A stretch of 64,000 bases of DNA from Candidatus Spongiisociaceae bacterium (lineage in GTDB: Bacteria; Actinomycetota; Acidimicrobiia; Spongiisociales; Spongiisociaceae): assembly GCA_965219685.1 (NCBI GenBank), contig CBDCOH010000002.1, forward strand, positions 928,001 to 992,000. Direction: 5' to 3'. The position numbers and the translations under genes were made by a program. Positions 1-53,635 of this stretch are shown piece by piece. The notes under the pieces are model-generated. The model had not been told where the DNA came from. It made no database searches and saw nothing but the letters and a program-made list of their open reading frames with translations. Each line of letters starts with the position of its first letter. Position 1 is the stretch's first letter.

Positions 1-821
1 CGCGTGTACACCTGTGTTGTTGAGACACTAGCGTGGCCCAGGATTTCTTGGACGGTGCGGAGGTCCGCTCCCCCCTCGACCATGTGGGTGGCGGCCGAGT
101 GGCGCAGCACGTGCGGTGATATACGGGTCTGCGGTATGCCCACCGCCAGGGCGTGCTTGCGGACGATGCCGAAGACCCCTTGGCGGGTCAACCGTCCCCC
201 CCTGGCGTTCAGGAACACCGCCCCCGGGTCCTCCCTCGCGCCGCACAGTTCGAGGCGGACGGGCAGGTATGCCCCGATCGCTTCCACCGCGGGCCGGCCC
301 AGCAGGACCAGGCGCTGCTTGTTCCCCTTGCCGGTAACCATGGCGCTGTGGGTGTCCAGGTCCAGTGCCACCAGATCGAGCCCCACCAGTTCGCTGACAC
401 GGACCGCGGTCCCGTACATGGTCTCCAGCATGGCGCGGTCCCGGATGCCCAGGTTCGTATCCGCAGGAGGCGCCTCCACGAGGCGGATCGTCTCGTGCAC
501 CTCCAGCGCCTTGGGGAAACTCATCGGAGTGCGCGGGGTCTCGGTGAACCGGGTCGGGTCCTCGTCCGTCTCGCCCTCGGCCACCAGGAACCGGTGGAAA
601 CCCCTGACCGCGGCCAGCTTGCGGGCGATGGTCGCCGGACGCATCCCCTGTTCGTACAGCGAGGCCAGGAATCCGTCCACCAACTCCGGCGTGGCCGCCT
701 CCTCCTCCAGATACTCCAGGTAGCCGGCCAGGTCACGCCGGTAGGCCGAGATCGTGTTGACAGCCAGCCCCCGCTCGACCGCCAACGCCGTCAGGTAACC
801 GTCGACTCGGTCGATCAGCAC
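1..821 (-). CDS. xerD: Tyrosine recombinase XerD (3' end runs off the window edge)
   Basis: Not in the ORF track. Manual minus-strand translation from GTG 821 gives [31 protein letters not shown]... and ...[41 protein letters not shown] (HxxR, LGH and catalytic Tyr). Position downstream of pyrG is typical. Confidence 0.93.
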   Translation of the reverse strand, partial: [273 protein letters not shown]

Positions 822-939
822 GTTGGTCGTGTCCTCTGCTGCATTGCTCCGTGCTCGGGAGACCTCGGTCTACGGCTCAATGCTACGAGCCATAGGCTGC
901 TTGTGTCTGTCGATTGACGGTGCCGGTTGAAACGAGGAC

Positions 940-1953
940 TCAGTGGCGACGCACCCTCCGGGCGGGCGCGGGGCCTGTGTCCAAGTAGTCACTTCGGACG
1001 GAGGGGTGGCGGCTTCCCGGTGGCGCGGTCGCACGGGGAGGCTCCACGAAGATGTTCTCGTGGTGCCAGTTCACATAGTTGATATCGGGTGGGTGGTAAG
1101 CGGCTTGCGGCCTCCGCATCAGTCTGCCCGCCAATGAGATAACCGGCATCCGCGTTGTCCCATCGCTTACGATCATGTGCTGGCTGACTTGTATCCGCAG
1201 ATCCTCGTCGAGGCCCATCGCTCCCCGGTCGAACAGTCGATGATGCAGGACACAGAGGGCGATTCCGTTGTCCGGATCGTCGGGCCCGTTGAAAGAACGC
1301 ATCTTCACGTGGGCTGCGTCGATAGCCACTGCGGCACCTCTGAGACTTCCATCAAACCCGCAGAATGCACAAGAGTTCTCGTATGCAAGAAGAACCGTCC
1401 CTCTGAAGCCGGGGGCTCTCTTGGGTGGGACCGGCACCACGACATTTGCGAGTCCAACCTCTTCGAGTACCTCGCTATGTAGCGTTTCGGGAAACGCGGT
1501 CAGTAGCTCATTGACCACTTGAGAACGCAGGTTCGCGTCCTCAAGAGCCTTCTCGAAGGTGGGGGCGAACCGGCCGGACACTCGTCGCCTGCGTAGGAGC
1601 GAGACCTTCAGCTTCTCATCTTGTCTCATCTTGGTGACGTCTTCACCAGACGCCGTTTCCACTCTCCACAGTTCCCGGTCGCTACCTAGGTAAACGAAAG
1701 GATGCTGAGGCTTGGGATCGGAGCTTGCGAACCGGTGCTTGTCCAACAGTGCCCTGAGCGGCTCCTCCGCATCGCGAAAGCTGATCCGCGTCGGTAGACC
1801 ATTGGCCTTGCGGCCGATCACCCAGAGAAGCAACAGTGGCTTGTAGGGGGCACGCCTGTCCTCGGTTCCGTATCGACCGATTGACCCGACCCTGGCCACC
1901 CAGTCCTGAATGTCTGCCGCTCCCGACACGCGACCGGCGACCTCTTTACCCAA
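940..1953 (-). CDS. HNH endonuclease with N-terminal SBD-like domain (putative phosphorothioate/modification-dependent restriction nuclease)
   Basis: N-terminal RAPYKPLLLLW and PQHPFVYL...W motifs. C-terminal CAFCG...DAAHVK...GPDDPDNGIALCVLHHRLFDRG (HNH_2 type). Visibly more AT-rich than the flanks. Confidence 0.8.
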   Translation of the reverse strand: MGKEVAGRVSGAADIQDWVARVGSIGRYGTEDRRAPYKPLLLLWVIGRKANGLPTRISFRDAEEPLRALLDKHRFASSDPKPQHPFVYLGSDRELWRVETASGEDVTKMRQDEKLKVSLLRRRRVSGRFAPTFEKALEDANLRSQVVNELLTAFPETLHSEVLEEVGLANVVVPVPPKRAPGFRGTVLLAYENSCAFCGFDGSLRGAAVAIDAAHVKMRSFNGPDDPDNGIALCVLHHRLFDRGAMGLDEDLRIQVSQHMIVSDGTTRMPVISLAGRLMRRPQAAYHPPDINYVNWHHENIFVEPPRATAPPGSRHPSVRSDYLDTGPAPARRVRRH

Positions 1954-2100: not shown

Positions 2101-2898
2101 TCACCGTCCCTGCCGGCGAGGTGGTCTCGGGATGAAGGCGCTGGTCCTCCGGGCGTATGCAGCGTAGCCCGGACGTCTCTCGCCGATGGTGCGTTCCAGC
2201 AGCGCCACGCCCGAGACCCGCAGCAGGAGGACGGTCATGACCAGCGGTCCGGCAACCGTCCACTCGGCGCCGGCCGTCAGGGCCGGGAGATAGATCCCCC
2301 ACCAGACCAGGCAGTTGCCGAAGTAGTTGGGGTGGCGGCTGTAGCACCAAAGACCCCGGTCCATCACCCGGGCGCGGTTGTCCCGGTCGGCGAGGAATCG
2401 GCGCAGTTGGCCGTCCGAGATGGCCTCGAAGGCGAAGCCGGTTCCCCACACGACCATCCCGGCCCAGTCGATCCAACCGAGCGGGTGCCCACCCACATCG
2501 GTCAGTACTGCTTGTACGGGCAGCGACACGACCGTTACCAGTGCGCCCTGCAGCAGGAACACGATCACCAGGCTCCACCACGCGAACGGCCGCCAGCGCC
2601 GCCGCATCGCCACGTACCGGTAGTCCTCCGGCGCTCCCCACTTGCGCACCGCCAGATGAGCCGCGAGCCGGATCCCCCAGACGGAGACCATCGTGAGCAT
2701 CAGGACGGATCGTCCGGCAGAGCGATCGCCCTCCCCCCAGATCCACATCGCCCACGCCGCGGCGACGAACACCACCGGCCAGATCGGGTCGACGATGGAA
2801 ACGTCCCGCTTGCGGAGGCTCACCAGCCAGGTGGAACCCATCAGCGCCGCAGCCACCATGCCCGTAATGACCGTCCCGTTGAACATGGTGGCCCTCAT
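2101..2898 (-). CDS. DUF1295 family membrane protein (steroid 5-alpha-reductase-like)
   Basis: SIVDPIW, EDYRY, FEAISDGQL and GLWCYSRHPNYFG motifs; multiple TM segments. Confidence 0.9.
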   Translation of the reverse strand: MRATMFNGTVITGMVAAALMGSTWLVSLRKRDVSIVDPIWPVVFVAAAWAMWIWGEGDRSAGRSVLMLTMVSVWGIRLAAHLAVRKWGAPEDYRYVAMRRRWRPFAWWSLVIVFLLQGALVTVVSLPVQAVLTDVGGHPLGWIDWAGMVVWGTGFAFEAISDGQLRRFLADRDNRARVMDRGLWCYSRHPNYFGNCLVWWGIYLPALTAGAEWTVAGPLVMTVLLLRVSGVALLERTIGERRPGYAAYARRTSAFIPRPPRRQGR

Positions 2899-3136
2899 GG
2901 GTCGGCGATCCTACCCATCGTCACCCGATGCAGGGTGATGCGTCGTCGACAAGGGCAACCTTAGAGCCAGCGTCTCTGCTCACCGGCCCCCTCCGCGAGG
3001 TCCGCGATCCATTGCGCTGGGAGCGTAAGCGTCAAGAGCATCCGCAGTACTCTCTTCTATGTCGCGGGGGTCACCGCCCTATTGGGTCCGGCCAACTGGC
3101 TGTTGGCTGTCCCAACGAGCCGTGACCCCGGCTTGC

Positions 3137-3166
3137 AGTATACACAAAGCTTAAAGTTACAGTCAA
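3137..3166 (-). promoter_or_regulatory. Near-consensus sigma70-type promoter TTGACT-N18-TATACT
   Basis: Reverse complement of AGTCAA (3161-3166) and AGTATA (3137-3142) in an AT-rich patch; predicted TSS about 3130. Confidence 0.6.
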
Positions 3167-3295
3167 AGGTTGAGGTTCGACTTCCGACCTGCCGCCGACG
3201 CCGGTGTCTTCCTGAGTGTTCCCCGGCCGATAGTCGTCCGGCCGCCACCCGCATAGGCCTGCAGCCCGATAACGTTGCAACCCATCGTGGGACAG

Positions 3296-20276: not shown

Positions 20277-23200
20277 CTAGAGCATTTCGTCGCTTCGGCC
20301 GTTGTCCACGGTCGTAACGGGAGGGGCGGGATCGGAGGGGGCCTCCGACGCTTCCCTGTGGAAGAGGTCTTCAGGAGTGTAGGGACCGGCCAGGTCGTGC
20401 CGGACCGACATGATCGCCAGGTCGCCGCCCGTCAGATTGCAGACATGCGACGCCTTGACGGGGACGTCGCCCGGGGGCGCGATCAGGGCTGAAGGCCACC
20501 ATAAGCTGGGCGTAAGAGAGCGGTCCGCGTCCTTGAGCGCCTCGGGTCGGAAGTAGGAGTGCGATACCTCGGACGTGGTCCGCGGCGCAACGGCGCCGAG
20601 GAAGTCCTCCAATGGTTCACCGCCCACCTCCGAGGCTTGGAGCGTCCCGCGCTGGCGATATACCCACTCGGCGGCCGCTGCCTGATCCGACTCGACCAGG
20701 GCGCGGCCCAACTCCGAGTCGTAGGTGCCAAGGCTCATATCCCGTAGGAAGCGCCAGCGCCCGCTTACGTGGGCGCGCCCGTCGGCTTCGACACTCGAGA
20801 CCTCCCGAGGATCCTGGTCGGGCCGGAGGATTCCCGTCGGATCCGAACCTACTTCGATCGCCCGTAGATGGCGGTAGGCGTCTATCGCCACGTCGTGACG
20901 CTTCCGCAGCCAGCCCGGTCGGGCGAGGCCGCTCATCATGCGAGCCCGCATGGCGGTGGCTCCCAGGCTCGTGACCCGGAAGGAGCGGTTCTCGGCCTTA
21001 CCCACTCCCAGGAGCATGTCGTAGCCGGATCGTTCGTCATCCGGCGTCCGCGAACCGAATGGCTTCCACAGCACCGTGGCCCAAGCTCCGGCCGAGGCGA
21101 CGAACTGCTCGAAAGCCTCGGCCGCGCGCCACGCCGCGTCAAGGGCTGCGACTATCCCACGTTCGAGGTCGGCGACTTTGGCCCTCTCCCGGTTATCGCG
21201 GCGGAATCCGTCGATCCCCATGGCTAGTAGCAGCAGCAGGATGACGAACAAGATTCCCGCCTCGTACCACCACAGTTCTCCGAACCCCTCTCGACGGCGG
21301 AGCCCGTACCAGCCGTTGTCACGGGCGATCAGGCCGATCAGTCCGAATACGCCGTAGACCATCGTGAAGAAGATCAGCATCCTCACCTGACGGAACGTCT
21401 CCATCGACCTGAGGGCGGGCCGGTCGAGCCGGATGGCCAGGACGACGGCGTAGTTGACCAGCGCCACCGACAACCCGAACGCGGACGCATCGTCTATGTT
21501 CGCGTCACCGGATACGAGCAGCCCGGCGAGCACTCCGGTTAGAGCAGACCAGCCGGCGATCCTGTTTAGCGCCGGTACCTCCCGCGAACGGGCTGAGGAG
21601 GGTGGGCTTGACGATGGCCCTGGATGGTCGGATCTCTCCGATGTCGGGTCGCCCTGCGCCGCTCCGGTAGCGATCGTCTCCCGATCCTCGTCGACCGTGT
21701 CGTCTTCAACCGGACCGTGCCGAGATCCGGCCGTGTCGGCAGCGGGCGTGAGTGGCCCGAACCGCAACACCACCGCCCGGGAGATCGCGGCGATCGCCAA
21801 TGCGTAGACGGCCGTGACCAGCCCCCAGGCCCAGGCGCGAGGCGTAGAGGACAGTGAGGTTATCCCCAGGACCTCCACGCCGCCGGATAGGACCAGCAGC
21901 CCCGTGATCGCCAGCACGATGAGCCCGGAGGTTACGATCGCGGTGGCGGAGAGCGCGGGAACCGGGTCGACTTCGAACACGTCGCGTGCGCGCCCGACGA
22001 GGCGTTGGAACTCCGCCCGGTTGCGGCGCTCCACTTCGCGCAGGTGAGCGCCGACGCGGCCGAGCAGCGAGGCGGGTACGCGTTTTGTCGCATCCGAGCG
22101 GATCTCCGCGGCGTGGGCGTCGATGTCGGCGGGAGCGATCAGGCCTATCTCGGTGATGACAACGTTGCGTCCCTTCAGCTGCGGCGAGGCCATGTCGCCG
22201 GGTGCCTGATCCCCGTCGACCAGCGAGAACACGGCCTTTCCGAGATCGGTCCAGATCTGTTGGTCGATTTCCACCCCGCCCTCTACCGCACGGCGTTGTC
22301 TCACCGCGGCTACCACGGTCTCGGGGTCCACGGGGTCAGCCGTGGTCCGGTCGTCACCGGACGGCATGTCCCGCCAGATGACCCGTAGGATCGAGTCCTG
22401 GCCGGCCGCGTCCTGCAGTATGCGGCCGGTGGCGTCGCGGAGCGCGGCCGTCACGTCGCTGAATACGGCGAACGTGTACCGGAGACCGCCCAGGATCCCG
22501 GCGCCCAACAGGCGGAGGGTGTCCGCCAGCCCCAGTCTGCGACGGTAACGCTCGGGTTTGTACTCGAACAGCAGGCTGTCCAGGTGGGAGACCATCCGCC
22601 GGCGGGCGTCGGTGAGGGTCTCGCCCGGGTACGGCGCCTCGGCGCAGTCCCTGGGTACCGGCGCCCGGCCTCCGTGGTTGGCGGCGGCGGCAAGCGTGAC
22701 GGCGGGGATCTCCGCTATCCGTGCGAACGAACGGGCCAGATAGACTTTGGCCTGGCCGTAGCCGATCGGGCCCCTGTCCAGGGACTCCACGGGCGCCTCT
22801 TCCATACCCGACCACATTCCGAGCGCGGTGGCCACCTCGGCCGCGATATGGGATGCGAACGTATCGGATTGCGGATCGGCGAGGGGAACACCCAACATCG
22901 CTTCGGTCCTGCGGTCCTCCGGGATGATGACCAGGTTGGCGTCCACTTCCGGCGAGAAAAACCCTTCGGGCGCCGCTAGCACTCCCCCGGCCCCGGGATC
23001 GCGTCGTGGCGACCAGATCCGTACCTCGACCACGCGCATTCCCTTGGGCTTGAGCGCCTCGATCTCGCCCGCTATGCGCTCGGCGGTCGACGACACGTAG
23101 GTAGTGCTCTCGATGTCCGGGCCGACCAGAGCCACCACGTGGACCAGTTCGAACTCCTCGCGGGCCAGTGTCTCAAACCACCGGCGGTGTTCCACTCCGT

Positions 23201-23348
23201 CCCGGCCGATGTCCATGTCGGGCCCGTCGTCGATGCAGGCGACGAAGGGTTGCACGAGACCGGCCCGCACCCACTCGGTGAGCCGTTGGACAGCGGCGGT
23301 CGTCGACTTGTCGTTGGCCGCCACGAGGAGGCTGCGGCGCGCGCTCAT
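20277..23348 (-). CDS. Large (1023 aa) uncharacterised multi-pass membrane protein, partner of the tubulin-like gene
   Basis: Long ORF with ATGA overlap to the upstream gene; about 6 central hydrophobic segments flanked by large soluble domains. Confidence 0.8.
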   Translation of the reverse strand: MSARRSLLVAANDKSTTAAVQRLTEWVRAGLVQPFVACIDDGPDMDIGRDGVEHRRWFETLAREEFELVHVVALVGPDIESTTYVSSTAERIAGEIEALKPKGMRVVEVRIWSPRRDPGAGGVLAAPEGFFSPEVDANLVIIPEDRRTEAMLGVPLADPQSDTFASHIAAEVATALGMWSGMEEAPVESLDRGPIGYGQAKVYLARSFARIAEIPAVTLAAAANHGGRAPVPRDCAEAPYPGETLTDARRRMVSHLDSLLFEYKPERYRRRLGLADTLRLLGAGILGGLRYTFAVFSDVTAALRDATGRILQDAAGQDSILRVIWRDMPSGDDRTTADPVDPETVVAAVRQRRAVEGGVEIDQQIWTDLGKAVFSLVDGDQAPGDMASPQLKGRNVVITEIGLIAPADIDAHAAEIRSDATKRVPASLLGRVGAHLREVERRNRAEFQRLVGRARDVFEVDPVPALSATAIVTSGLIVLAITGLLVLSGGVEVLGITSLSSTPRAWAWGLVTAVYALAIAAISRAVVLRFGPLTPAADTAGSRHGPVEDDTVDEDRETIATGAAQGDPTSERSDHPGPSSSPPSSARSREVPALNRIAGWSALTGVLAGLLVSGDANIDDASAFGLSVALVNYAVVLAIRLDRPALRSMETFRQVRMLIFFTMVYGVFGLIGLIARDNGWYGLRRREGFGELWWYEAGILFVILLLLLAMGIDGFRRDNRERAKVADLERGIVAALDAAWRAAEAFEQFVASAGAWATVLWKPFGSRTPDDERSGYDMLLGVGKAENRSFRVTSLGATAMRARMMSGLARPGWLRKRHDVAIDAYRHLRAIEVGSDPTGILRPDQDPREVSSVEADGRAHVSGRWRFLRDMSLGTYDSELGRALVESDQAAAAEWVYRQRGTLQASEVGGEPLEDFLGAVAPRTTSEVSHSYFRPEALKDADRSLTPSLWWPSALIAPPGDVPVKASHVCNLTGGDLAIMSVRHDLAGPYTPEDLFHREASEAPSDPAPPVTTVDNGRSDEML

Positions 23349-26300
23349 AACAGTTCCGGCCTTCCCGAGTCGTCACGCTCCAGGCAGAACTTGATATTGG
23401 TGAGTTCCTGAGTGACGAGGTCGGCGATCCCCAGCCACGCGATGCGGGTGCGCTGGTCACTCCCGCGATCCTCTGCGATCTGCTCGTCGTACAAGTCGAC
23501 CTGTCTTCCCAGCAACTCGATGGCGTCCCGTCTGCGAGAGCGTTCGTCCCCGCCCCTGATCACGGGACTCCTCACCCCCGCGGTGTTTCCTGTCGCCAAC
23601 CAATTGGATAAGACCCGGCTGGGCCGCGTGAAGGCCTTCAGGTCCGGTCCTCTCGCACCCGGTGATCGGCCCCACTCGACCAGGCGCGCGTAGGGCCCCA
23701 GGAACTTACCCGCGTCCTTCCGGTCGGCGGCGACCGGGAACGCGAGGCACAACCCTTCCAGCAGCGAGGCGAGGACGTTCCACGGCTGGCCCCCCACCGG
23801 CAGCGTCGGCTCGAACCGGAGAACACCGTGTTCGGTGGTGATGGCCACGGTCCGGTCCTCGATCTCGACCAGGCCCAGCATCCTGCCGATGAACCACCCC
23901 CTGATCAGGGCGCTCAACATCGGCCGAGGGATCGGAGTGGCCCTGGACAGGGCCCGCGATCGCCGGGCGTTCCAGAAGCTGACCAGATTGGACGTGTCGT
24001 GTTCCTTCCGCCAGGCGTCGGCGATGGGCTTCGTCAACGAGTCGAAGCACACGGGATGGAGGGCGCCTCCGAGCGATGTGTAGACCGCCACTCTGGTCTC
24101 CCGTTCGGACTGGTTGATCGTCTGCTCGACGGCCTCTGCGTCCCTATCGAGTTGCGGGAGGAGGTATTCACGAACGAGTGGCTCGACCGGGAGGCCGGCG
24201 ACCGGGATCGGGCTGGTCACCGGACGGATGCGCAGATCGGAGCCGGGATGTACCTGCTGGACCATCTCACGGTCGACCGAGACCAATGGCTCGGCCGCCT
24301 CGAAGGCCTTCTCCAGGCACTTCCGGAACCGTTGGTCTCGGGGAGCCCGCACCGCAGGCGGTAACGAGTCCGAGAGATAGCCCCGCAGGCCCAGCGCCAG
24401 GGTCTCTTTCCACGTCGAGCCGTCGGTGCGCAACCAGGCGCGGGCCCGGCTGAGAATGTCGTCCCGGCTGATACGCACGGTGAACGAGGCCCTCCGCGGC
24501 GCGGCGTCGCCCGCCGCGAGCCATTCCGGTGCGGACCATGCCGAATCGGGCAGCATCCAGGGCTCCATGACGCTCTGCTCGGCCTCACCGGTGATCACGG
24601 TCCGGCGGACCTTGGCCCAGGCCTCCTCGAGTCCGGTCGTTCCGGCCGAATCCATGGTGTGTTCTTCGAACAGCCGGGGGAAGTCTTCCGGATCTATGAC
24701 CAGCATGGTGCTCGCGCCGGGCTGCAGCGCGTCGGGAACGAGCCGGTCGGACGCGGGATTGTGGCGGGGCCAGTCATCGATCGGCGTTGAACCCGCTTCG
24801 CTCCTATCGGCTTCCACCGCCTGACGCAGAGCGTCGTAGGCGTGTTCGATCGCCTCGCGGAGCGGCTGGAGCACCCCGTCGCGCAGGTCCGCGAGCAGCC
24901 GGGAGGCGATGAGACGATGGTCGGCGTTGTAGGGATGCACCAGGCCGGTCTGGATCGCCTTGCCGATGGCGTTGCGGACTCCTTCGTGGTCGGCCGGGAG
25001 GGTGCCGGGACCCATTCCGATCGCGTCCAGGACGTCGGATCGCAGGTGTCCCGCCCATGCCAGTTCCTCCTGGCGCTCCGATTCGAGTTCTTCGGCCACG
25101 TGCTCCATCTCCGCGTCGGCCTTTGCCAGGAGTCGCAGCGCAACCTGCGCTCCATAGTCCGCGACGTTCGCACCCACAACCTTCACGATGCGGTCGGTGA
25201 TGTGTTCCACCCACTTCAAGGCCTCGTCCCGCAGCCGGTCGTCCAGTTTCTTCAACACGCCCGCTCGCCGGACCTCCACACCCTCCACGATGCAGTCCAC
25301 CCAGCGAAGCGCCCGGGCTTTGGAACCGACCTCCTCCGATGCTTCGTACCGGACCTGGTCCGCTACATCCCTGAAGACCGCGTCGAGTTCCGCATCCTGA
25401 AGCCCGATGGAGTCCAGAACCTGGTTGTTGTCGCGTCCCCGCTCGTTGATGCCGCATCTCCTGAGAAACCGCGTGAAGGCATCCTCTGCGAGATCCTCCA
25501 CGATCTCAGCGGTGGTGTGGTTCTCGTAGCGTCGCTGCTTCTTCGCCGCCCGTACGTAGTCACCGAGCAGGAACTCGATCGCGTCGCGGGTGATCCGCTG
25601 TTCGGCATACGTTCCGAGACGGCCCACGCCGAGGTCCACCTCGGCGAATCCGAGCGCCTGGATGGCCCCGTAGTACTTCGGCGGATCGGGCAGCATCAGT
25701 GTGTCGCCGCCAGAGGTGGGGAAACTGCCGGCGGAAGCCTGCCAGTTGGCCTTCATGTACACCGTGAAGTCGTCCTGCATGCGCCGGTCGGTCATCACTG
25801 CGGCCAGGCAGCGCGCCATGAAGCGATATGCGGCGAGTTGGTCGCCGAAGCCCACCCCTTTGGTATTCGTGTGCCCCACCAGGTAGGGGAAGGCCGGCCC
25901 GGAGCGCTGCTGGACCGCGCCGCCACCGGGTGGCGTGAACTCTCCGTCGCCGTAGTAACCGTGCAGCATCTCGGCCAGCGCCGCCGCGGTGTTCGGATAC
26001 ACGCCCCGGCTCGCCGCCTCAGACAGATCGACGAACACGTCAGCCGAATACAGGATGCCGATCGACTCGTCCATCCACGAATCTCCGTCGACCCTCAGGA
26101 TGTCGCACACATCCATCAGGATGCCTGCGCCGGTCCCGCCTGCCAGGGAGGACACGACGATCACCGCGGGCGTCGCAGCAGACTCTCCGGCCAGAGATAC
26201 GCCGTATGCCCGCTCGGCGAGTTGGCGGAGCTGTGCCATGGCGCCCGCGCTCAGCAAAGCCTGGTTCTTCATCCTGATGCGCTTCTGGATCTCGTCGGCG

Positions 26301-26677
26301 CGGAACAGGCCAAGCACGCGGCCCACCGCCCGGTACTGGCCGGCTCCGGCTTCGATGGGAATGCGCATGTAGTCGGAATCGAACAGCCAACCGCCGAAGT
26401 CGTGATCCTTGCGCTCGAGGCTGTCCACCATCGTTCTCAGGTCTATGCCCGGCCGCGCCAGTCCCAGGTACTCGTCGGCGTCCAGCAAATCAGGCCCGCC
26501 CGGAAGGACCGGTGTGTCTTGGTGGACGGGAGTGTCGATGTGGAGTAGCTGCCAACCGTCGGGCATTCCCTGGTCCCAGCCGATCTCACGGAACCGTTCT
26601 TCGAGGGTCTGCTTCAGGTAGCGCAGGGTCTTGCCACCTGAGCCGCCGAGGCCGATGATCAGGAACTGTTGCAGCAC
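23345..26677 (-). CDS. Tubulin/FtsZ-like GTPase domain protein (Tubulin_2 / FtsZl1-type), 1110 aa
   Basis: IIGLGGSGGKTL, HIDT, GAGQYRAVG, SSLAGGTGAG (tubulin signature variant) and YPNTAAAL; long helical C-terminal extension; RBS AAGGAG before GTG 26677. Confidence 0.88.
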   Translation of the reverse strand: MLQQFLIIGLGGSGGKTLRYLKQTLEERFREIGWDQGMPDGWQLLHIDTPVHQDTPVLPGGPDLLDADEYLGLARPGIDLRTMVDSLERKDHDFGGWLFDSDYMRIPIEAGAGQYRAVGRVLGLFRADEIQKRIRMKNQALLSAGAMAQLRQLAERAYGVSLAGESAATPAVIVVSSLAGGTGAGILMDVCDILRVDGDSWMDESIGILYSADVFVDLSEAASRGVYPNTAAALAEMLHGYYGDGEFTPPGGGAVQQRSGPAFPYLVGHTNTKGVGFGDQLAAYRFMARCLAAVMTDRRMQDDFTVYMKANWQASAGSFPTSGGDTLMLPDPPKYYGAIQALGFAEVDLGVGRLGTYAEQRITRDAIEFLLGDYVRAAKKQRRYENHTTAEIVEDLAEDAFTRFLRRCGINERGRDNNQVLDSIGLQDAELDAVFRDVADQVRYEASEEVGSKARALRWVDCIVEGVEVRRAGVLKKLDDRLRDEALKWVEHITDRIVKVVGANVADYGAQVALRLLAKADAEMEHVAEELESERQEELAWAGHLRSDVLDAIGMGPGTLPADHEGVRNAIGKAIQTGLVHPYNADHRLIASRLLADLRDGVLQPLREAIEHAYDALRQAVEADRSEAGSTPIDDWPRHNPASDRLVPDALQPGASTMLVIDPEDFPRLFEEHTMDSAGTTGLEEAWAKVRRTVITGEAEQSVMEPWMLPDSAWSAPEWLAAGDAAPRRASFTVRISRDDILSRARAWLRTDGSTWKETLALGLRGYLSDSLPPAVRAPRDQRFRKCLEKAFEAAEPLVSVDREMVQQVHPGSDLRIRPVTSPIPVAGLPVEPLVREYLLPQLDRDAEAVEQTINQSERETRVAVYTSLGGALHPVCFDSLTKPIADAWRKEHDTSNLVSFWNARRSRALSRATPIPRPMLSALIRGWFIGRMLGLVEIEDRTVAITTEHGVLRFEPTLPVGGQPWNVLASLLEGLCLAFPVAADRKDAGKFLGPYARLVEWGRSPGARGPDLKAFTRPSRVLSNWLATGNTAGVRSPVIRGGDERSRRRDAIELLGRQVDLYDEQIAEDRGSDQRTRIAWLGIADLVTQELTNIKFCLERDDSGRPELL

Positions 26678-26737
26678 GGTTGCTCTCCTTGGTTGGATCC
26701 GGATTTCCCGGGCGCGGGCTGCCGGACGCGGGTTGGT

Positions 26738-29134
26738 TCACTCATCGGGCGCCGTCTCTTCCGGCGCCGGGATACTCGCGAGCGCATCCCTGACATAGCC
26801 GGCGAACTGATCCTCGGTGGGGGTGGAAGGGTCGACCGGCGCTATCACGACCCCGTGATGCGGCGCGGGTCCCGACACGTCTATCAGGACGATGGGTTCG
26901 TGGAGCCGACGTTCCGATCGCAGGTCGGGCGACCGGTCCGAGACGTTGGTGGCATCGCGGCCCGAGCCGACCACGCCGACGAAGCGGCGCCCTGCAAGTG
27001 ACAGCCGGACGTAGGGAGGGCGCCAGGGTCGCCATGGCGTCTTACGTACAGCGCGCAGGTCACCCGCCTGGAGAGTGCTAGGCGAGTGGCGCGCTCTCCG
27101 GAGCTGGGCCTCCGACAAGTCGGACACGAGCGTCCATCCGTCCGCCACACGGAAGGTTGTGTATCGCGTGCGCCGGGGTCGCCGGATCCGACCTGCGACG
27201 CGGTTGATCCCGTAGAGCCACCCCCATATGAGCGCCAGGAGGAGGGCGAGCATCGCCGCGATGAGGATCGTCTCGACGGCCACGTTGCGTGGATGGTCGA
27301 AGCTGACGGATACCGCTAGCGGTACCTGTCGTGTCAGCCCTGCCGGGTCCGCGGGGTCGGTGACGTACGCGAACAGGAGTATGTGGTCGTCCGGTGTCTG
27401 GACCGAGCGGTCGAGACGCACGTGCAGTTCGACGGGCTCGGGGTCGCCGGAGGACCAGGCAGTTGCTCCGTCCGGGAAAGACAGTTCGATTCCGACCGGG
27501 ATCCCGTCGGTGCCCAAGATGGGATCGACCGGCAGCAGCCGTATCTCTCCTTCCCGGCCGTCGGCCTCGATGACGATGGGGATGGCGAACTCGGTGGCTT
27601 CGATGGATCCCAACGCCGGCTCGGTGACCCGGAGTATCGGTCCGTCGGGAAGATCGACCACCGTGAAGGTGACCGATGCCGTGGCGGGATCGGAGTGTTC
27701 GGATACGAGGCGGACTTCGAAGGTGTGGTCTCCCACGGCGAGTGGCGGCGACCGGAACCGTCCCGAGCCGATGCGTGGGGGCGTGATCAGCACACCGTCG
27801 AGAACGAAATCGAGAAACGGTTCGTCGACCTCGGCAAGCTGCGCCGCCCCGGTCAGGAGCGAGAAGTCGATGGGTGTGTCAGGAAATATCGGGCTGGTCT
27901 CGATCCGGATGGAGAGGGTCGGAACTTCGAGGACGACGGAGCCACAGACCTCCTCGACTCCTTCACCATGGACCTCGGTCGAGGTGTAAGGAACCTCGGA
28001 ATAGTCGAGAACGATCCGGCGGGCTCGGTCGCCGTCCTCGAGACGGTGAGCGGGATGGTTGGTGGACAGTTCCGGGGAGTCGCCCTCCGCTACCACCACC
28101 GCGGATCGGACGAACGCCGGAGCGATCCCGTCCGGCAGTCTCCCGTCCCACAGGATGCCGTCGTGGGAGGCGACGGTGAGCCAGGGCCCGGAGAGGTCTT
28201 CGCAGGCCCGCGATGGGGGCATGGTGGTGGTCGTGGCCACGGTCGTAGTAGTGGTCGGGAGGGTCGTGGTGGTTGGCGTAGTCGTTGTGGGAGGTGGCGG
28301 CGGCTCTACGAACTTGAACTCCGGCTGTGTGGTCGTCTGCAGGGCGATGTGATCCCCGCAACGGCCCTGCTCCATCATTTCGAGAAGGGTCTTGGTATCG
28401 CCGGATGGAGGGTCCCCCACGTAGAAGAGACGGATGTCGATGCGGGCCCCGAGTTGCGCGAGACGACCCGAGAGGTTCTCGTAGCCAGGTGCGACTGTGC
28501 TTTCCCGGGACTCGTCGCCGCAAACCGCGGGGATCAGGAGATCTGCGACATCGTTGCCGATCCGCCGGCTGGTGAGCGGGCGTTCCAGGCCGTCGTAGGG
28601 TCGAGGTGTCCGGTCACCCCTATGAGCATCGCTGAGATCGTGAAGTCCGTCGGTCAACCACACGACCCGATGGCAGTCGGCTGACCAATCGAGATCGAGC
28701 AGTCCGTATAGGGCGGACACGTAGTCGGTGTTCAGGTCGTGGTCACCGAACCGTTCGATCGTGGACACCACGTCGTCGTTGCCGCTCGCCTTGAGGTCGG
28801 TGAACTCGCGACGCAGTTCGAAATCGGTGCCGAAGGTGGCCAATCCGAGGCGGACCCGCAGTCCCGCCTCCACGGACCTCTCGAGGGAGGCCACGTAACG
28901 CTTGGCGGCGGCGATCCGCTGGCCGTCCGGGTCGTTGGTACGCAGGGACTGGGACTCGTCCATCAGTATCAAAACGTCCCACGACCGCGCCTCGGGAGGG
29001 CAGAACGCGTCCGCTCTCACAGGATCCTGATCCTGACCTCCGGAGGGAACGGCGACCATGGTGCTAGTCGTCACGGCGATGAGAACGGAGATGGTGAAGA
29101 CAATCGGGCGACCGGGACGGGCCGCCTGGTTCAC
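26738..29134 (-). CDS. Membrane-anchored vWA domain protein
   Basis: N-terminal signal-like segment, MIDAS DESQS...TDY...LTDG, Pro/Thr linker, beta-rich region, TM ILIAAMLALLLALIWGWLY followed by a basic stretch. Start GTG 29134 overlaps the upstream stop. Confidence 0.85.
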   Translation of the reverse strand: MNQAARPGRPIVFTISVLIAVTTSTMVAVPSGGQDQDPVRADAFCPPEARSWDVLILMDESQSLRTNDPDGQRIAAAKRYVASLERSVEAGLRVRLGLATFGTDFELRREFTDLKASGNDDVVSTIERFGDHDLNTDYVSALYGLLDLDWSADCHRVVWLTDGLHDLSDAHRGDRTPRPYDGLERPLTSRRIGNDVADLLIPAVCGDESRESTVAPGYENLSGRLAQLGARIDIRLFYVGDPPSGDTKTLLEMMEQGRCGDHIALQTTTQPEFKFVEPPPPPTTTTPTTTTLPTTTTTVATTTTMPPSRACEDLSGPWLTVASHDGILWDGRLPDGIAPAFVRSAVVVAEGDSPELSTNHPAHRLEDGDRARRIVLDYSEVPYTSTEVHGEGVEEVCGSVVLEVPTLSIRIETSPIFPDTPIDFSLLTGAAQLAEVDEPFLDFVLDGVLITPPRIGSGRFRSPPLAVGDHTFEVRLVSEHSDPATASVTFTVVDLPDGPILRVTEPALGSIEATEFAIPIVIEADGREGEIRLLPVDPILGTDGIPVGIELSFPDGATAWSSGDPEPVELHVRLDRSVQTPDDHILLFAYVTDPADPAGLTRQVPLAVSVSFDHPRNVAVETILIAAMLALLLALIWGWLYGINRVAGRIRRPRRTRYTTFRVADGWTLVSDLSEAQLRRARHSPSTLQAGDLRAVRKTPWRPWRPPYVRLSLAGRRFVGVVGSGRDATNVSDRSPDLRSERRLHEPIVLIDVSGPAPHHGVVIAPVDPSTPTEDQFAGYVRDALASIPAPEETAPDE

Positions 29135-29547
29135 AACGGCCACTCTCTGGCGATCCGGACGGCGATGAGGTAGCCGCAGAGAAGGGCTCCCACGACTGAT
29201 GCGAGGAGGGACAGCCTGGCCAGGATGGTGGGTCTCCACCACCGTTCCTGCCACCTCGTCCGCTCGCGGAACCTTCCCAACTGGAACAGGGCGAAGCCCG
29301 GGAGCGAGAAGACGAGGACCGCCAAGATCCCGCCGGTTGCTCGCTGGAACGCCTGGTCACCGACTCTTCCGACCTCGTCGGCGGTCAGGGCTGCGGCTAC
29401 AGCCATAGAGGTACCGAGCAACGACACCAGGAGCCACAAGACCCATCGCGCGCCTCGCGGTGGCCGACGGTGAAGGTTCCTTCGCGGGTTTCTGGATCCG
29501 GCCTCCCGCTGCCTGGATCGCGGGTCGGACTCGAACCTATAGCTCAT
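29131..29547 (-). CDS. Small membrane protein (about 3 TM), first gene of the vWA/tubulin operon
   Basis: Three hydrophobic segments; GTGA overlap with the vWA gene. Confidence 0.65.
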   Translation of the reverse strand: MSYRFESDPRSRQREAGSRNPRRNLHRRPPRGARWVLWLLVSLLGTSMAVAAALTADEVGRVGDQAFQRATGGILAVLVFSLPGFALFQLGRFRERTRWQERWWRPTILARLSLLASVVGALLCGYLIAVRIAREWPL

Positions 29548-49580: not shown

Positions 49581-50504
49581 ATGTCCTACCCTTCCGGCCG
49601 AACGGGCCGGTCCCCCAAATTCGCCACGGCTGCGGGAACGCGGAGAGGGCCGTTCGGTTGGGTCGAGTGGCTGTTACTCGCCGCGGTGGCTCTCATCTGG
49701 GGCTCTTCGTACCTCTTCATCGCGATCGGTCTCGAGTCGCTGGAGCCGTCGGTGATCACTTGGGGGCGGGTCGTGTTGGGGTCCGCGGTCCTGATGGGGC
49801 TCCCGGCCGCCCGCCGGCCTGTCGAGCGGGCCGATTGGGGAAGGATCGCGGCCCTCGGAATCGTGTGGAGCACCATCCCGTTCCTCTTGGGGCCCGTTTC
49901 CCAGCAGCACATCACCTCCGCGATGGCGGGGATGATCAACTCGCTGGTCCCCATCTGCAGCGCGGTCATCGCGGCCTTGCTGCTCCGGTCCCGCCCCCGC
50001 TTCCCTCTCGTGGTGGGGATCCTCCTCGGGTTCGTGGGAGCGATCGGACTGACGGTCCCGGCCCGAGGGGACTCGCCGGCGGTCAACTGGGGCGTACTGC
50101 TCGCCGTGGTCGCGGTGGTCTTCTACGCGCTGGCGCTCAACCTGGCCGTTCCCCTGCAACAGAAGTACGGGTCGCCGGCGGTGATCATGAGGGCGCTCGC
50201 CCTCGCCGCGGTCATGACCGCGCCGTTCGGGATCGCAGGTCTGGGAGACTCCGAGTGGAGCACCGGTCCGGTGCTGGCTGTGGTCGTGCTCGGAGTTCTC
50301 AACACGGGCGTCGCTTTCGCGTTGGTCACCCTGCTGGTCGGGAGGGTGGGGACCACGCGCGGGAGCGTGGCCGTCTACTTCCTGCCCGTCGTGGCCATGG
50401 TGCTGGGGGTGTTGCTGCGCGAAGAGACGGTTCTCCCCATCCAGGTGCTGGGTACGGGTGTGGTGCTGTTCGGAGCATTCCTGGCGAGCCGCTCGGAGTC
50501 GTGA
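49581..50504 (+). CDS. DMT/EamA family transporter, paralog 1
   Basis: IWGSSY, ten-TM pattern, RVGTTRGSVAVYFLP; 924 nt. Confidence 0.9.
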   Translation: MSYPSGRTGRSPKFATAAGTRRGPFGWVEWLLLAAVALIWGSSYLFIAIGLESLEPSVITWGRVVLGSAVLMGLPAARRPVERADWGRIAALGIVWSTIPFLLGPVSQQHITSAMAGMINSLVPICSAVIAALLLRSRPRFPLVVGILLGFVGAIGLTVPARGDSPAVNWGVLLAVVAVVFYALALNLAVPLQQKYGSPAVIMRALALAAVMTAPFGIAGLGDSEWSTGPVLAVVVLGVLNTGVAFALVTLLVGRVGTTRGSVAVYFLPVVAMVLGVLLREETVLPIQVLGTGVVLFGAFLASRSES

Positions 50505-50611
50505 CCGGGTCGACCGGAAGCGCCGGTTCGGCCTCGCCGGCGCGCGGACGAGGGGACGGGACGCTCCGGACGCGACGGGCATCGAGTACTGCGGCTACGC
50601 TCGTGCCTCTC

Positions 50612-51535
50612 ATGTCCCAGGCTTCTCGCCGCTCCGGTCGCAGAACCATCTTCTCCACTGCTCCAGGAACACAACTCGGGCCGTTCGGGCTGGTCGAGTG
50701 GGCGCTCTTCGCCGGCGTGGCCCTCATCTGGGGATCCTCGTACCTGCTCATAGACATCAGCCTGGAAGGTCTGTCCCCGCTGGCCATCACCTGGGTGAGA
50801 GTGGTGTTCGGCCTCGCGGTCCTGGCGGCGTTTCCGGTCGCGCGCCGCCCGGTGGACGGGGCGGACTGGCGACGTATCCTCGTGCTGGCGATGACCTGGA
50901 ACACGATCCCGTTCATCCTCTTCCCGGTCGCCCAGCAGCACATCGACTCGGCCCTCGCCGGCATGTTGAACGCTCCGATACCGATCTACAGCTCGGTGAT
51001 CGCGGTGGTGCTGCTGCGCAGGCTCCCGCGTCTTGGCCAGACGGTGGGCATCTCGCTCGGTCTGGCGGGAGCGATCGGTATCGGCCTTCCCGCCGTCCGG
51101 GACTCGGCCGCCAGCTCGTTGGGCGTGCTGCTCGTGGTCACGGCGACCCTGCTCTACGGTCTGTCGATCAACCTGGCCGTGCCCCTCCAGCAACGCTACG
51201 GGGCTCCGGCGGTGATCATGCGTGCCCTGGCGGTGACGGCGGTCGTAACCATGCCGCTCGGGGTTGTCGGTCTGGCCGGGTCGGAGTGGAGGACGGGCTC
51301 GGTGGTTGCGGTGGCCGTGCTCGGCATCGTCAACACCGGCATGGCATACGTCATCATGGCCTCGTTGGTGGGGAGGGTTGGTCCGACTCGGGGCAGCGTG
51401 GCCGTGTACTGCCTGCCGATCGTGGCCATGGTCCTCGGAGTCATATTCCGCGACGAGATGATCCTGCCCATACAGGTAGCCGGAACGGGTCTGGTGCTCC
51501 TCGGCGCATGGCTAACCAGCCGGCGCGAGTTCTGA
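50612..51535 (+). CDS. DMT/EamA family transporter, paralog 2
   Basis: Paralogous to its neighbours; ATG 50612; 924 nt. Confidence 0.9.
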   Translation: MSQASRRSGRRTIFSTAPGTQLGPFGLVEWALFAGVALIWGSSYLLIDISLEGLSPLAITWVRVVFGLAVLAAFPVARRPVDGADWRRILVLAMTWNTIPFILFPVAQQHIDSALAGMLNAPIPIYSSVIAVVLLRRLPRLGQTVGISLGLAGAIGIGLPAVRDSAASSLGVLLVVTATLLYGLSINLAVPLQQRYGAPAVIMRALAVTAVVTMPLGVVGLAGSEWRTGSVVAVAVLGIVNTGMAYVIMASLVGRVGPTRGSVAVYCLPIVAMVLGVIFRDEMILPIQVAGTGLVLLGAWLTSRREF

Positions 51536-51536
51536 A

Positions 51537-51558
51537 CCGTCCGGCCGGGACGGGTTTT
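51537..51558 (+). terminator. Possible intrinsic terminator after EamA paralog 2
   Basis: CCGTCC-GGCCG-GGACGG followed by GTTTT. Confidence 0.4.
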
Positions 51559-51645
51559 CGGGTCGAGCACAGACCGACCCCGCCGGATCGGTCCGTTCCT
51601 TGTCGGAGTCGGGTGTGGGCTGTCCACCGCTACTCTCGTCCCCCG

Positions 51646-52569
51646 ATGTCCCGCGCCCCCCGCACGTCCGGCCGTACGCCGGTGCTCGCCGCCGCCCAAG
51701 GATCACGGCGCGGCGCCTTCGGGCCGGCCGAGTGGGCTCTGCTCACAGGCGTGGCGCTCATCTGGGGGTCGTCGTTCCTCCTCATCGAGATCAGTCTGGA
51801 GTCGGTGGCTCCGCCGACGATCACCTGGGGCAGGATCACGCTCGGCTTCCTGGTACTGGCGGCGTTTCCGGCAGCCCGGCGGCCCGTGGAGCGGTCGGAT
51901 TTCTGGCGCATCGGCCTGCTTGGGATCACATGGGTGTTCATTCCGTTCCTGGTGTTTCCCATCGCCCAGCAGCACATCGACTCGGCTCTGGCGGGGATGC
52001 TGAACGCCACCGTTCCGATCTTCAGCACATCCGTCGCCATCGTCCTGGCCCGCTCCCTCCCCCGCCTGCGCCAAGCGGTCGGCATAGCTCTCGGCTTCGT
52101 CGGGGCGGTCAGCGTCGGTATCCCCGCCGCCCATGACTCGTCGGCTGCTGCCTTGGGCATAGTCATGGTGGTTGCGGCCACATTCTTCTACGGCCTCTCC
52201 TTAAACGTGGCCGTCCCGCTGCAACAGCGCTACGGGGCGCCCGCCGTGATGATGCGGGCTATCGGTGTGGCTGCCGTTGCCACCGCGCCCCTGGGCCTCG
52301 CCGGCATCGCAGACTCGCAATGGAGCACCGGCCCCGTTCTGGCGGTGATGGTGCTGGGGGTGATCAACACCGGCGCCGCGTTCGTGATAATGACGGCCTT
52401 CGTGGGAAGGGTCGGTCCCACCCGGGGAAGCGTGGCCATCTATTTCACTCCCATCGTCGCCATGGTGCTGGGGATGGTGTTCCGGTCGGAGGTCATCCTT
52501 CCCCTGCAGTGGGTCGGAACCGGGGTCGTGCTGTTCGGTGCATGGCTCGCCAGCCGGCGCGAGTCGTGA
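51646..52569 (+). CDS. DMT/EamA family transporter, paralog 3
   Basis: Paralogous; ATG 51646; 924 nt. Confidence 0.9.
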   Translation: MSRAPRTSGRTPVLAAAQGSRRGAFGPAEWALLTGVALIWGSSFLLIEISLESVAPPTITWGRITLGFLVLAAFPAARRPVERSDFWRIGLLGITWVFIPFLVFPIAQQHIDSALAGMLNATVPIFSTSVAIVLARSLPRLRQAVGIALGFVGAVSVGIPAAHDSSAAALGIVMVVAATFFYGLSLNVAVPLQQRYGAPAVMMRAIGVAAVATAPLGLAGIADSQWSTGPVLAVMVLGVINTGAAFVIMTAFVGRVGPTRGSVAIYFTPIVAMVLGMVFRSEVILPLQWVGTGVVLFGAWLASRRES

Positions 52570-52602
52570 GTCGCGGCGTCGATGAGGCGCTATGTTCCGT
52601 CC

Positions 52603-53526
52603 ATGCCCGATCCCTCCCGAAGCGCACGCCACAGACCGCTGCTGTCCACGGCTCGGGGATCGAGGGTCGGGAGCTTCGGGCCCGCCGAGTGGGCTCTGCT
52701 CGTCGGTTCGGTGCTCACCTGGGGGTCGTCGTTCCTCCTGATCGAGATCAGCCTGGAGTCGGTGGCGCCGCCGACGATCACCTGGGTGAGGATCACGCTG
52801 GGTTTCCTCGTCTTGACCCTTATCCCGGTAGCCCGCAGACCGGTGGAGCGGTCCGACTACCGGCGCGTCGCCCTGCTGGGGATCACATGGCTGGCCGTGC
52901 CTTTCCTCATCTTCCCGATAGCCCAGCAGCACATCGACTCGGCTCTGGCCGGGATGCTGATCGCCATGGTTCCGATCTTCAGCACCTCCATCGCCACCGT
53001 GCTCATGCGGTCGCTCCCCCGGCTCCGCCAGGCGGTCGGCATTGGGCTCGGCTTCGTCGGGGCGATCAGCATCGGCCTCCCGGCCGCCCGTGGTTCGTCG
53101 GCCGCTGCCTGGGGCGTGCTGCTGGTGGTTCTTGCGACCTTCTTCCACGGCATCTCCCTCAACCTGGCGGTCCCCCTCCAGCAGCGGTACGGGGCGCCCG
53201 CCGTGATGATGCGGGCGATCGGCGTGGCGGCCGTCGCCACCGCGCCCTTCGGCCTAGCGGGACTCGCCGCCTCACAGTGGGCCACCGGTCCGGTCCTCGC
53301 AGTGATCGTGCTCGGAGTGACCAATACCGGTGGCGCGTTCGTGCTCATGACTGCCTTCTTGGGCAGGGTGGGTTCCACCCGTGGCGGTGTTGCCGTCTAC
53401 CTCGTCCCGATCCTCGCCATGGTGCTGGGGATGGTGTTCCGGTCTGAGGTCATCGTCCCCGTCCAGTGGGTCGGGACCGCGATCGTGCTGTTCGGTGCAT
53501 GGCTCGCCAGCCGCCGCGAGTCCTGA
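52603..53526 (+). CDS. DMT/EamA family transporter, paralog 4
   Basis: Paralogous; ATG 52603; 924 nt. Confidence 0.9.
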   Translation: MPDPSRSARHRPLLSTARGSRVGSFGPAEWALLVGSVLTWGSSFLLIEISLESVAPPTITWVRITLGFLVLTLIPVARRPVERSDYRRVALLGITWLAVPFLIFPIAQQHIDSALAGMLIAMVPIFSTSIATVLMRSLPRLRQAVGIGLGFVGAISIGLPAARGSSAAAWGVLLVVLATFFHGISLNLAVPLQQRYGAPAVMMRAIGVAAVATAPFGLAGLAASQWATGPVLAVIVLGVTNTGGAFVLMTAFLGRVGSTRGGVAVYLVPILAMVLGMVFRSEVIVPVQWVGTAIVLFGAWLASRRES

Positions 53527-53635
53527 GCCGCCGGGCCGGGGCGAGCTGTCCGGCCGGACGCGGTGACAAGTCGCACAGGCACGACTGTTCGACCTCGGTG
53601 TGGGCATGGAGCGGCCCGGCTACTCTCGTCTCTCC

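Follow-up and report, generated by a model that had tools for sequence, protein, structure and literature searches.

Operons built around divergent FtsZ-like GTPases of the FtsZl1 type have been on record since 2010, when Makarova and Koonin described the gene order B2-vWA-FtsZl1-B3-B4-B5-B6-GTPase (vWA, von Willebrand factor type A) in Corynebacterium, Rhodococcus and Mycobacterium kansasii and listed Xylanimonas Xcel_1380-1377 as a four-gene block (PMC2875224). In the available sections of that paper, B3 is termed only a "large membrane-associated protein", and the T6-H7 elements and the C-terminal domain of FtsZl1 could not be identified (PMC2875224). Kaur et al. 2020 placed the longer operons among predicted conflict systems and gave the actinobacterial theme one tubulin gene and the Firmicutes version two (PMC7159879). 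Our literature search found no experimental test of FtsZl1-system function, and only the 2010 and 2020 computational papers were relevant; PMC13271388, as far as its accessible portion goes, concerns a different system. Here we analyzed a 64,000-nucleotide (nt) stretch of a Candidatus Spongiisociaceae genome (contig CBDCOH010000002.1, positions 928,001 to 992,000), hereafter the window, which carries four genes of this kind, g1 to g4. The operon is real, conserved and of an already catalogued type; the new part, predicted by modelling, is a membrane-spanning tubulin in B3.

An open reading frame (ORF) check of the window confirmed the four co-oriented minus-strand genes that the initial annotation had reported at 20277-29547, together with overlaps at two of the three junctions. 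The g1/g2 junction is a GTGA overlap, with the best g2 start at the GTG at 29134 overlapping the g1 stop; the g3/g4 junction is an ATGA overlap, with the g4 start on the g3 stop; and 60 nt separate g2 from g3. The genes and the mapped parts of g3 and g4 are as follows (aa, amino acids; TM, transmembrane; MIDAS, metal ion-dependent adhesion site).

29131..29547, minus strand: g1, B2-family 138-aa three-TM protein (hydropathy)
26738..29134, minus strand: g2, 798-aa type-I membrane vWA protein (VWA_2 over cut-off, hydropathy, MIDAS)
23345..26677, minus strand: g3, 1110-aa FtsZl1 (Tubulin_2) GTPase (Pfam, AlphaFold2 model, fold search)
23981..24295, minus strand: g3 residues about 795-899, past the insert, where the model puts the second half of the tubulin C-terminal subdomain (aligned ranges; strands E817-821 and E862-869; start boundary placed from secondary structure)
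20277..23348, minus strand: g4, 1023-aa B3-family membrane protein (AlphaFold2 model, fold search, profile match to the Rhodococcus gene at the B3 position)
22707..23348, minus strand: g4 residues 1-214, putative degenerate tubulin N-terminal domain with P143-E-D145-R, H167, G177-x-W179 and an acid at 188 (DSSP, conservation; loops named by the order of elements)
21204..21947, minus strand: g4 residues 468-715, six TM helices in three hairpins, with a disordered loop at 534-583 (hydropathy and model)
20328..20546, minus strand: g4 residues about 935-1007, strands predicted to close the C-terminal subdomain (ends of the FtsZ alignments; strands E946-951, E964-967 and E977-990)

The g4 AlphaFold2 model (74 sequences; predicted local distance difference test score, pLDDT, 84.5; predicted TM-score, pTM, 0.70) was searched with VIA-align in a set of 48,161 chains. 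Tubulin or FtsZ chains filled the top 12 rows (Z 8.2-11.8, 216-271 residues aligned), and the best unrelated row stood at 7.7. The best match was Asgard AtubA/B, with Z 11.8 and a root-mean-square deviation (rmsd) of 4.7 over 255 aligned residues (model 3..1007 on chain 2..389); the others included CetZ (Z 11.3), OdinTubulin (11.2), gamma-tubulin (11.0), BtubA (10.9), FtsZ (9.4), TubZ (8.9) and PhuZ (8.2). A second look, at Foldseek's top 1000 for g4, was led by eight CetZ/FtsZ chains (Z 9.1-11.7), with the next row at 6.6. The alignments spanned the tubulin chains to both ends, and those with FtsZ ended at model 989-990, in the last strand, versus chain 312-316. The resemblance of g4 1-215 to a tubulin domain without glycine loops had been noticed before modelling. 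These results indicate that g4 is very probably a whole tubulin fold, as modelled, interrupted by about 700 residues, six TM helices among them, and devoid of the GTP loops. The initial annotation, which had called g4 a large polytopic partner, was right about a membrane protein, here with six TM helices, but missed that the protein is itself a predicted tubulin fold.

The conservation of g4 was assessed in 109 homologues. D145 and W179 were each retained in 108/109, H167 in 103/109, and an aspartate or glutamate at 188 in 92/109, and across the 109 no glycine run was conserved behind either the first or the fourth strand. Because the glycine loops are missing, g4 is taken as a degenerate relative of the fold, not as a predicted GTP binder. 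By the order of elements, its T7 region consists of a helix (162-175) and a 10-residue loop (176-185), followed by the conserved acid at 188. TM counts in the 104 full-length homologues were six in 56 and one or two, the Rhodococcus type, in 19.

The partner g3 matched Tubulin_2 (PF13809) with an expectation value (E) of 2e-42, at 146 bits versus a cut-off of 27, and contains the loops GLGGSGG, GAG and AGGTGAG, the last, of the GGGTG(S/T)G type, at 179-185. The GTP-loop residues G11, G12, S13, G111, G113, Q114, R116, G180, G181, G183 and G185 were invariant in 56/56 sequences. These data uphold the FtsZl1/Tubulin_2 identity and the intact GTP loops first proposed for g3, which is predicted to bind GTP. 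Its AlphaFold2 model (70 sequences, pLDDT 89.4, pTM 0.81) aligned with CetZ at Z 23.4 and rmsd 3.6 over 297 residues (model 2..899 on chain 1..346). Tubulin-family chains took the first 17 places in the fold search (Z 12.6-23.4; next row 8.5), and Foldseek returned 17 matches at E<=0.001, those listed being all tubulin-family; a PDB sequence search with g3 gave nothing under E 0.1. The last residues of FtsZ, CetZ and TubZ were paired with model positions 873-899, and the FtsZ alignment in particular ended at model 873 versus chain 316, that is, at strand 862-869. Helices occupied 351-794 and 918-1103 of the model, in line with the long helical middle and largely helical C-terminal part of FtsZl1 proteins. 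In this model a helical insert of about 430 residues (roughly 365-795) interrupts a tubulin fold that is predicted to be complete, and such a split can account for the failure of the 2010 analysis to find a C-terminal domain. The tubulin part had initially been assigned to the N-terminal third of g3; the GTP loops do lie there and the model does have the tubulin fold, but the fold extends to about residue 899. The helices flanking the expected T7 (activating) loop, 280-296 and 298-316 by the order of elements, are one residue apart. The host genome also encodes a conventional FtsZ (PF00091 match at C2:707924, E 6.3e-46).

Several observations weigh against the tubulin reading of g4 and the model built on it. 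The fold matches of g4 have rmsd 4.4-7.7 and identities of 6-13%, and they give ranges only, not residue-level alignments; Foldseek on the g4 model returned nothing at E<=0.001. hhalign gave probabilities of 0.2% for g4 versus g3 and 3.5% for g4 versus FtsZ (the positive control, g3 versus FtsZ, was likewise missed, at 0.5%), and the pairwise score lay within shuffles. g4 has no Pfam match and no sequence-level tubulin support, and no sequence link was found from g4 to the intermediate family outside the TM region. The putative loop equivalences follow the order of secondary-structure elements.

Further searches were made around this question. In the ESM Atlas, g4 1-260 led below threshold to Tubulin_2 clusters (0.78-0.79), and a PDB sequence search with g4 gave hydrophobic-helix noise only. 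Dynamin-like or other long-stalk folds were absent from the whole-model fold lists of g3 and g4, in which the inserts were not searched alone. A parallel that speaks for the tubulin reading was seen in another lineage of Actinomycetota, where FtsZl1 is followed by a gene with a partial glycine loop and an internal hydrophobic hairpin (L118:1157-3484); Tubulin_2 matches were obtained in 2/5 scanned members of its family (E 3.4e-7, over the cut-off, and 1e-4), and this family could not be linked to g4 by sequence. The two tubulin genes that Kaur et al. report for the Firmicutes version point the same way (PMC7159879). A complex prediction with g3 1-375, g4 1-230, GTP and Mg, in which both chains were without their closing subdomain pieces, gave no answer (score 0.26, mark 0.32) and is counted neither way.

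We compared the window with a Rhodococcus opacus locus of the published layout. There the gene after the tubulin matched the g4 profile at E 5.7e-55, the gene before the vWA gene was linked to g1 through two profile steps, and the downstream genes are GAP1-N2/GAP1-M and DO-GTPase2. The near and far sets of g1-position genes aligned with each other (hhalign probability 90.6%, E 1.3e-6), and the profile of the far set matched the Rhodococcus gene at the B2 position at E 2e-8. From these matches, g1 is B2 and g4 is B3, as assigned by position in the Rhodococcus locus, not against cgR_2625/cgR_2628, and the long form is by the same profile evidence the tubulin theme of GAP1-N2 systems. Judged from its sequence, the window operon is the B2-vWA-FtsZl1-B3 core, a type catalogued in 2010. 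The system is thus less new than the initial annotation held: divergent FtsZ-like genes do co-occur with vWA genes and no experiment was found, but the four-gene layout had already been tabulated in 2010.

The same four genes in the same order occurred in 8/10 relative loci fetched, of which 2 share the site seen in the window and 6 do not, and the arrangement is therefore not attributable to chance; the remaining 2/10 are distant versions with a vWA gene, a tubulin gene and a g4-like gene. We further used the best 79 loci of 185 confirmed matches from a species-genome scan, a set that favours this subfamily, overlaps the relatives and is not independent. By record titles, the closest relatives among these best 79 are Candidatus Spongiisociaceae or Acidimicrobiia. 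Within the same set a g4 homologue followed g3 in 63/63 loci where g3 is complete and 3.2 kb or more of sequence lies beyond it, and g3 and g4 overlapped by 4 nt (stop/start) in 28/55 intact pairs. The 8/10 and 63/63 counts bear out the co-conservation of the four genes.

The distribution of the module is patchy. A g3 match was found in 10/41 related genomes, the host genome included, and in 9/24 others of the same family; in an even sample of the class, 18/401 genomes matched the g3 profile, 15 of them strongly, and in an even sample of the phylum 9/401 matched PF13809. Copies of the module were found on 5 large plasmids. Relatives of g4 were found in no viral contigs, and in no plasmids by single-sequence tblastn, a query that is insensitive because it missed the Rhodococcus homologue found by profile. 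The distant module type is present in genomes G017 and G006 (L022, L023), with g3 identities of 25-31% and a two-TM B3-like gene; G006 holds both module types, and in its distant copy g3 is split in two. Tandem arrangements were also observed: two FtsZl1 genes, the first of which is broken and has a B3 fragment behind it, and then a CHAT-TPR gene (L100:10001-19672), and two divergent tubulin-like genes of 498 and 573 aa (L123:7515-11141), which adjoin nitrile hydratase subunit-like and CobW-type genes as read by eye.

The two upstream genes proved to be what had been proposed for them, a 3-TM protein and a type-I membrane vWA protein with signal, MIDAS, stalk, TM segment and tail. g1 has 3 hydrophobic segments by hydropathy, with a probable N-in topology by the positive-inside rule, and gave nothing over the Pfam cut-off; in 40/44 usable loci the vWA gene has a small multi-TM gene in front of it. 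g2 matched VWA_2 at E 9.2e-8 (33.1 bits versus a cut-off of 27) and has a signal-like segment at 11-29, a TM segment at 618-636 and a conserved cytoplasmic tail of about 160 aa. Its ectodomain consists of the vWA domain with an intact MIDAS (D59-x-S61-x-S63, T136, D162), then a Pro/Thr stalk and a beta-rich part, and contains conserved cysteines at 45/154/205/259; no FNIII match was obtained in a Pfam scan of the four proteins. A MIDAS-bearing long ORF lay upstream of g3 in 44/55 related loci with intact g3-g4 pairs. The idea of a hypervariable sensor was unsupported at family level, as identities among four same-family orthologues were 46-55% in the ectodomain and 41-60% in g4, with no marked excess of variation in the ectodomain.

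In relatives, a fifth gene encoding a single-pass, outward-facing trypsin-like protease (Trypsin_2) directly follows g4. It was present in 23/60 loci with room for it and absent in 37/60, with 4 further loci too short to tell; the His and Ser motifs were found in 22/23, and one gene is split. The protease is present in 6/8 close orthologous loci and absent from the window copy. The minimal copy of the initial annotation is indeed a four-gene core, but the fifth gene of close loci had been overlooked. The best matches to the operon protease elsewhere in the host genome (G000) showed 28-31% identity versus 53-65% among operon proteases, so that G000 has no orthologue. In a quick g3 tree, the protease loci formed two clades with interspersed protease-free loci, and the window copy grouped as sister to a set of six loci with the protease (support 0.95), while a clade lacking it branched outside them; both gain and loss of the protease fit this tree. 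One B3 homologue (P0147) carries a fused trypsin domain that no TM segment precedes; as a single sequence, this is weak evidence. Other variants were an operon protease that carries a GmrSD C-terminal (HNH-type) domain as a fusion (L073:16807-18636, E 5.8e-8) and, in one relative, a second operon protease bearing a zinc ribbon at its N-terminus (L020:16487-17848); a small stand-alone double zinc-ribbon protein at G000:C2 1293077 (minus strand) has an N-terminus 62% identical to the latter. Both g1 and the operon protease start with a similar short aromatic/acidic motif of the FEF[ED]Y type, followed by an Arg-rich stretch (window 29530-29547, minus strand; L016:16406, L017:15661, L018:16148, L019:16163, L020:17876 and L021:16481, plus strand). 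This start was seen in 6/6 family proteases and in 0 of the other listed proteases, a comparison made without a control, and it is possibly a shared docking motif.

The claim that the operon holds no kinase, FHA or extra GTPase gene stood, and GAP1-N2, GAP1-M and DO-GTPase2 were not over cut-off in the genome either. GAP1-N2 and GAP1-M gave 0 matches in G000, a 96.7% complete genome, where DO-GTPase2 gave a single 25-position P-loop match below cut-off. Across 50 carrier genomes, many of them incomplete (50 of 79 loci), GAP1-N2 was found in 0/50; DO-GTPase2 was over cut-off in 0/50, with short weak matches in 4/50, at most 45 candidates being scored per genome. The positive control for these searches, Corynebacterium glutamicum, was positive. 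The B4, B5, B6 and GTPase genes of the long form are not at the locus, and the B5 and GTPase families were not found in G000, in which B4/B6 were not searched genome-wide. These results indicate that the core occurs widely without the arm that defines the systems of Kaur et al.

The initial annotation had also placed the operon between housekeeping genes. Its neighbours are of that type, but the site is a variable slot, empty of the module in same-genus genomes G004 and G005 and in same-family genome G008, which retain the rhomboid gene with Nudix or M20 genes nearby. In the window, a convergent rhomboid gene (Pfam) follows g4, then tlyA-, NAD-kinase- and recN-like genes read from the sequence; the other flank has an M20 peptidase gene (Pfam) and Nudix- and GNAT-like genes, likewise read from the sequence. 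A functional tie between the module and the rhomboid was rejected because the rhomboid persists at the site where the module is absent. The rhomboid-side slot holds an ankyrin-repeat gene after g4 in G007 (L024:3986-5197) and, by eye only, a small toxin-antitoxin-like pair in G005 (L124, about 2600-3200). The GC content at third codon positions (GC3) was 0.78-0.82 in the module genes versus 0.85-0.88 in four neighbouring housekeeping genes. A promoter/terminator scan of the operon gave nothing above shuffled sequences, and NCBIfam gave no match over cut-off for the four proteins. Elsewhere in the window, a strong AT skew (-0.27 to -0.29) extends across 4 kb at 50001-54000, unlike the remaining window.

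We propose that the four genes build one membrane complex, a receptor-gated, membrane-anchored live/dead tubulin pair. A g3-g4 complex is probable, and the whole scheme has about an even chance of being right. It begins from the observed gene order, overlaps, co-conservation and motifs, and from the modelling prediction that g3 and g4 are whole tubulin folds, the one split by a helical and the other by a membrane-spanning insert. g4 would anchor g3 through a tubulin-type contact and nucleate or cap a short assembly. Given the one-residue T7 gap in g3 and the 10-residue loop and acid D/E188 in g4, g4 may also provide the activating face, acting as the membrane-bound activator of g3 in trans. 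Metal-dependent ligand binding at the outer vWA domain would be relayed by the g2 cytoplasmic tail to g3-g4, with g1 as a co-gate, and the output would be a local envelope response to something contacting the cell surface. Interchangeable add-ons might deliver that output: GAP1/DO-GTPase in the Rhodococcus type and an exported trypsin-like protease in many Acidimicrobiia. The window copy has no add-on and so would act via the core alone or unlinked partners. The module may form a polymer and sense a ligand, with a role perhaps in remodelling, contact or defence. In its most specific version, which we hold tentatively and somewhat short of an even chance, B3 would be an integral-membrane tubulin with a spliced-in six-helix membrane domain, forming an obligate live/dead heterodimer with FtsZl1 and offering the activating loop in trans, and FtsZl1 operons would be a receptor-gated, self-anchoring tubulin machine able to work without the GAP1/DO-GTPase arm and driving interchangeable envelope effectors.

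Other explanations were considered. The module could be an anti-phage or anti-invader conflict system, in which the vWA protein detects an attacker, the GTPase gates g4 and the TM bundle depolarises or kills the cell. Its patchy and mobile-looking occurrence (9/24 same-family genomes, 15 strong carriers among 401 class genomes), the differing sites in close relatives, the empty slot in same-genus genomes and the 5 large-plasmid copies are in keeping with this, as are the classing of the longer operons with predicted conflict systems in the available text of Kaur et al. 2020 (PMC7159879) and a PycTM gene (Pycsar-type TM effector, E 1.7e-14) immediately before the vWA gene of one distantly related FtsZl1 operon (L115:17517-18077). 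Yet none of the four proteins matched a PADLOC 2.0 family at E<=0.1, the ectodomain shows no hypervariability, and the DO-GTPase and GAP1 that define the systems of Kaur et al. are missing. The flanks say little in its favour: 148 of 169 picked ORFs from 27 loci were scanned, and about 5 of the 148, with no baseline for comparison, gave specific defence-type matches (JetD, part of DrmD, PDC-S01, PDC-S09 and a pAgo-associated domain), the other matches being generic (ABC ATPase, methyltransferase, UvrD, trypsin). We therefore consider a conflict system unlikely.

A device that puts a surface adhesin in place, displays it or sheds it, in which the tubulin pair positions the vWA protein and the protease clips this or other surface proteins for host or surface attachment, would make use of the intact MIDAS, the stalk and the beta-rich ectodomain, and of the exported trypsin-like protease with its His and Ser motifs; many carriers are named as sponge-associated taxa in record titles, and a rhomboid gene adjoins the module in the window. 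We find this account decidedly doubtful: most loci, the window copy included, are protease-free, the rhomboid gene is convergent and stays at the site in module-free genomes, and Actinoplanes, Occultella and Georgenia are among the carriers too, as are records whose titles name soil isolates. It is more doubtful still that the window copy is a reduced remnant of a longer system, with its effector arm lost and little activity. Six close orthologous loci do have the protease missing here, g3 is broken in one same-genus genome and two same-genus genomes lack the module, but the copy has four intact frames, high GC3 and all conserved motifs, protease-free loci are spread over several clades, and the 2010 table, in its accessible portion, lists a four-gene layout for Xylanimonas (PMC2875224).

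FtsZl1 systems have been accompanied since 2010 by doubt whether the polymerisation parts of tubulins are retained; our models predict that these parts are kept and split round a giant insert. If the proposed live/dead pair is true, a membrane-spanning member is added to the tubulin superfamily, the actinobacterial and Firmicutes versions are unified as two-tubulin systems, and the mechanism becomes testable through g3-g4 binding, the g4 acid at 188 and the MIDAS residues. The laboratory host Corynebacterium glutamicum carries the long form.

Compared with the operons in the available sections of the 2010 paper, the window's four genes match the first four in order and sizes, and the copy is without the B4-B6 and extra GTPase genes of the long form (PMC2875224). 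Gene sizes are also similar to those of Xylanimonas Xcel_1380-1377, a likeness by size and layout, not one of g4-Xcel_1377 homology (PMC2875224). g4 has six TM helices versus two in the Rhodococcus gene at the B3 position. In contrast to the 2010 account, as far as it is accessible, the present models place the T6-H7 elements and the C-terminal domain and predict B3 to be a second tubulin fold (PMC2875224). The theme in the available text of Kaur et al. is alike in having a tubulin with a helical C-terminal part and a membrane-bound vWA protein with beta-rich domains; it differs in its DO-GTPase and GAP1, found neither in the host genome nor in the 50 carrier genomes, and in its count of one actinobacterial tubulin, whereas the g4 model implies two, like the Firmicutes version (PMC7159879). 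The Esr threat-sensing pathways of oral Actinomycetota likewise tie a surface sensor and vWA to an envelope defence response, by analogy only; they are MoxR/kinase/FHA-based, and the words "tubulin", "FtsZ" and "GAP1" occur 0 times in the accessible text (PMC13622651). With CetZ, FtsZ, TubZ/PhuZ, BtubA/B, Asgard AtubA/B and alpha/beta-tubulin, g3 and g4 are predicted to have the fold in common in both subdomains. Unlike those tubulins, g3 and g4 are predicted to bear inserts of about 430 and 700 residues inside the C-terminal subdomain. We know of no solved tubulin with such inserts, or of one that is membrane-integral and GTP-loop-less as g4 is predicted to be. A paralogue pair with unequal nucleotide roles nevertheless recalls alpha/beta-tubulin and BtubA/B.

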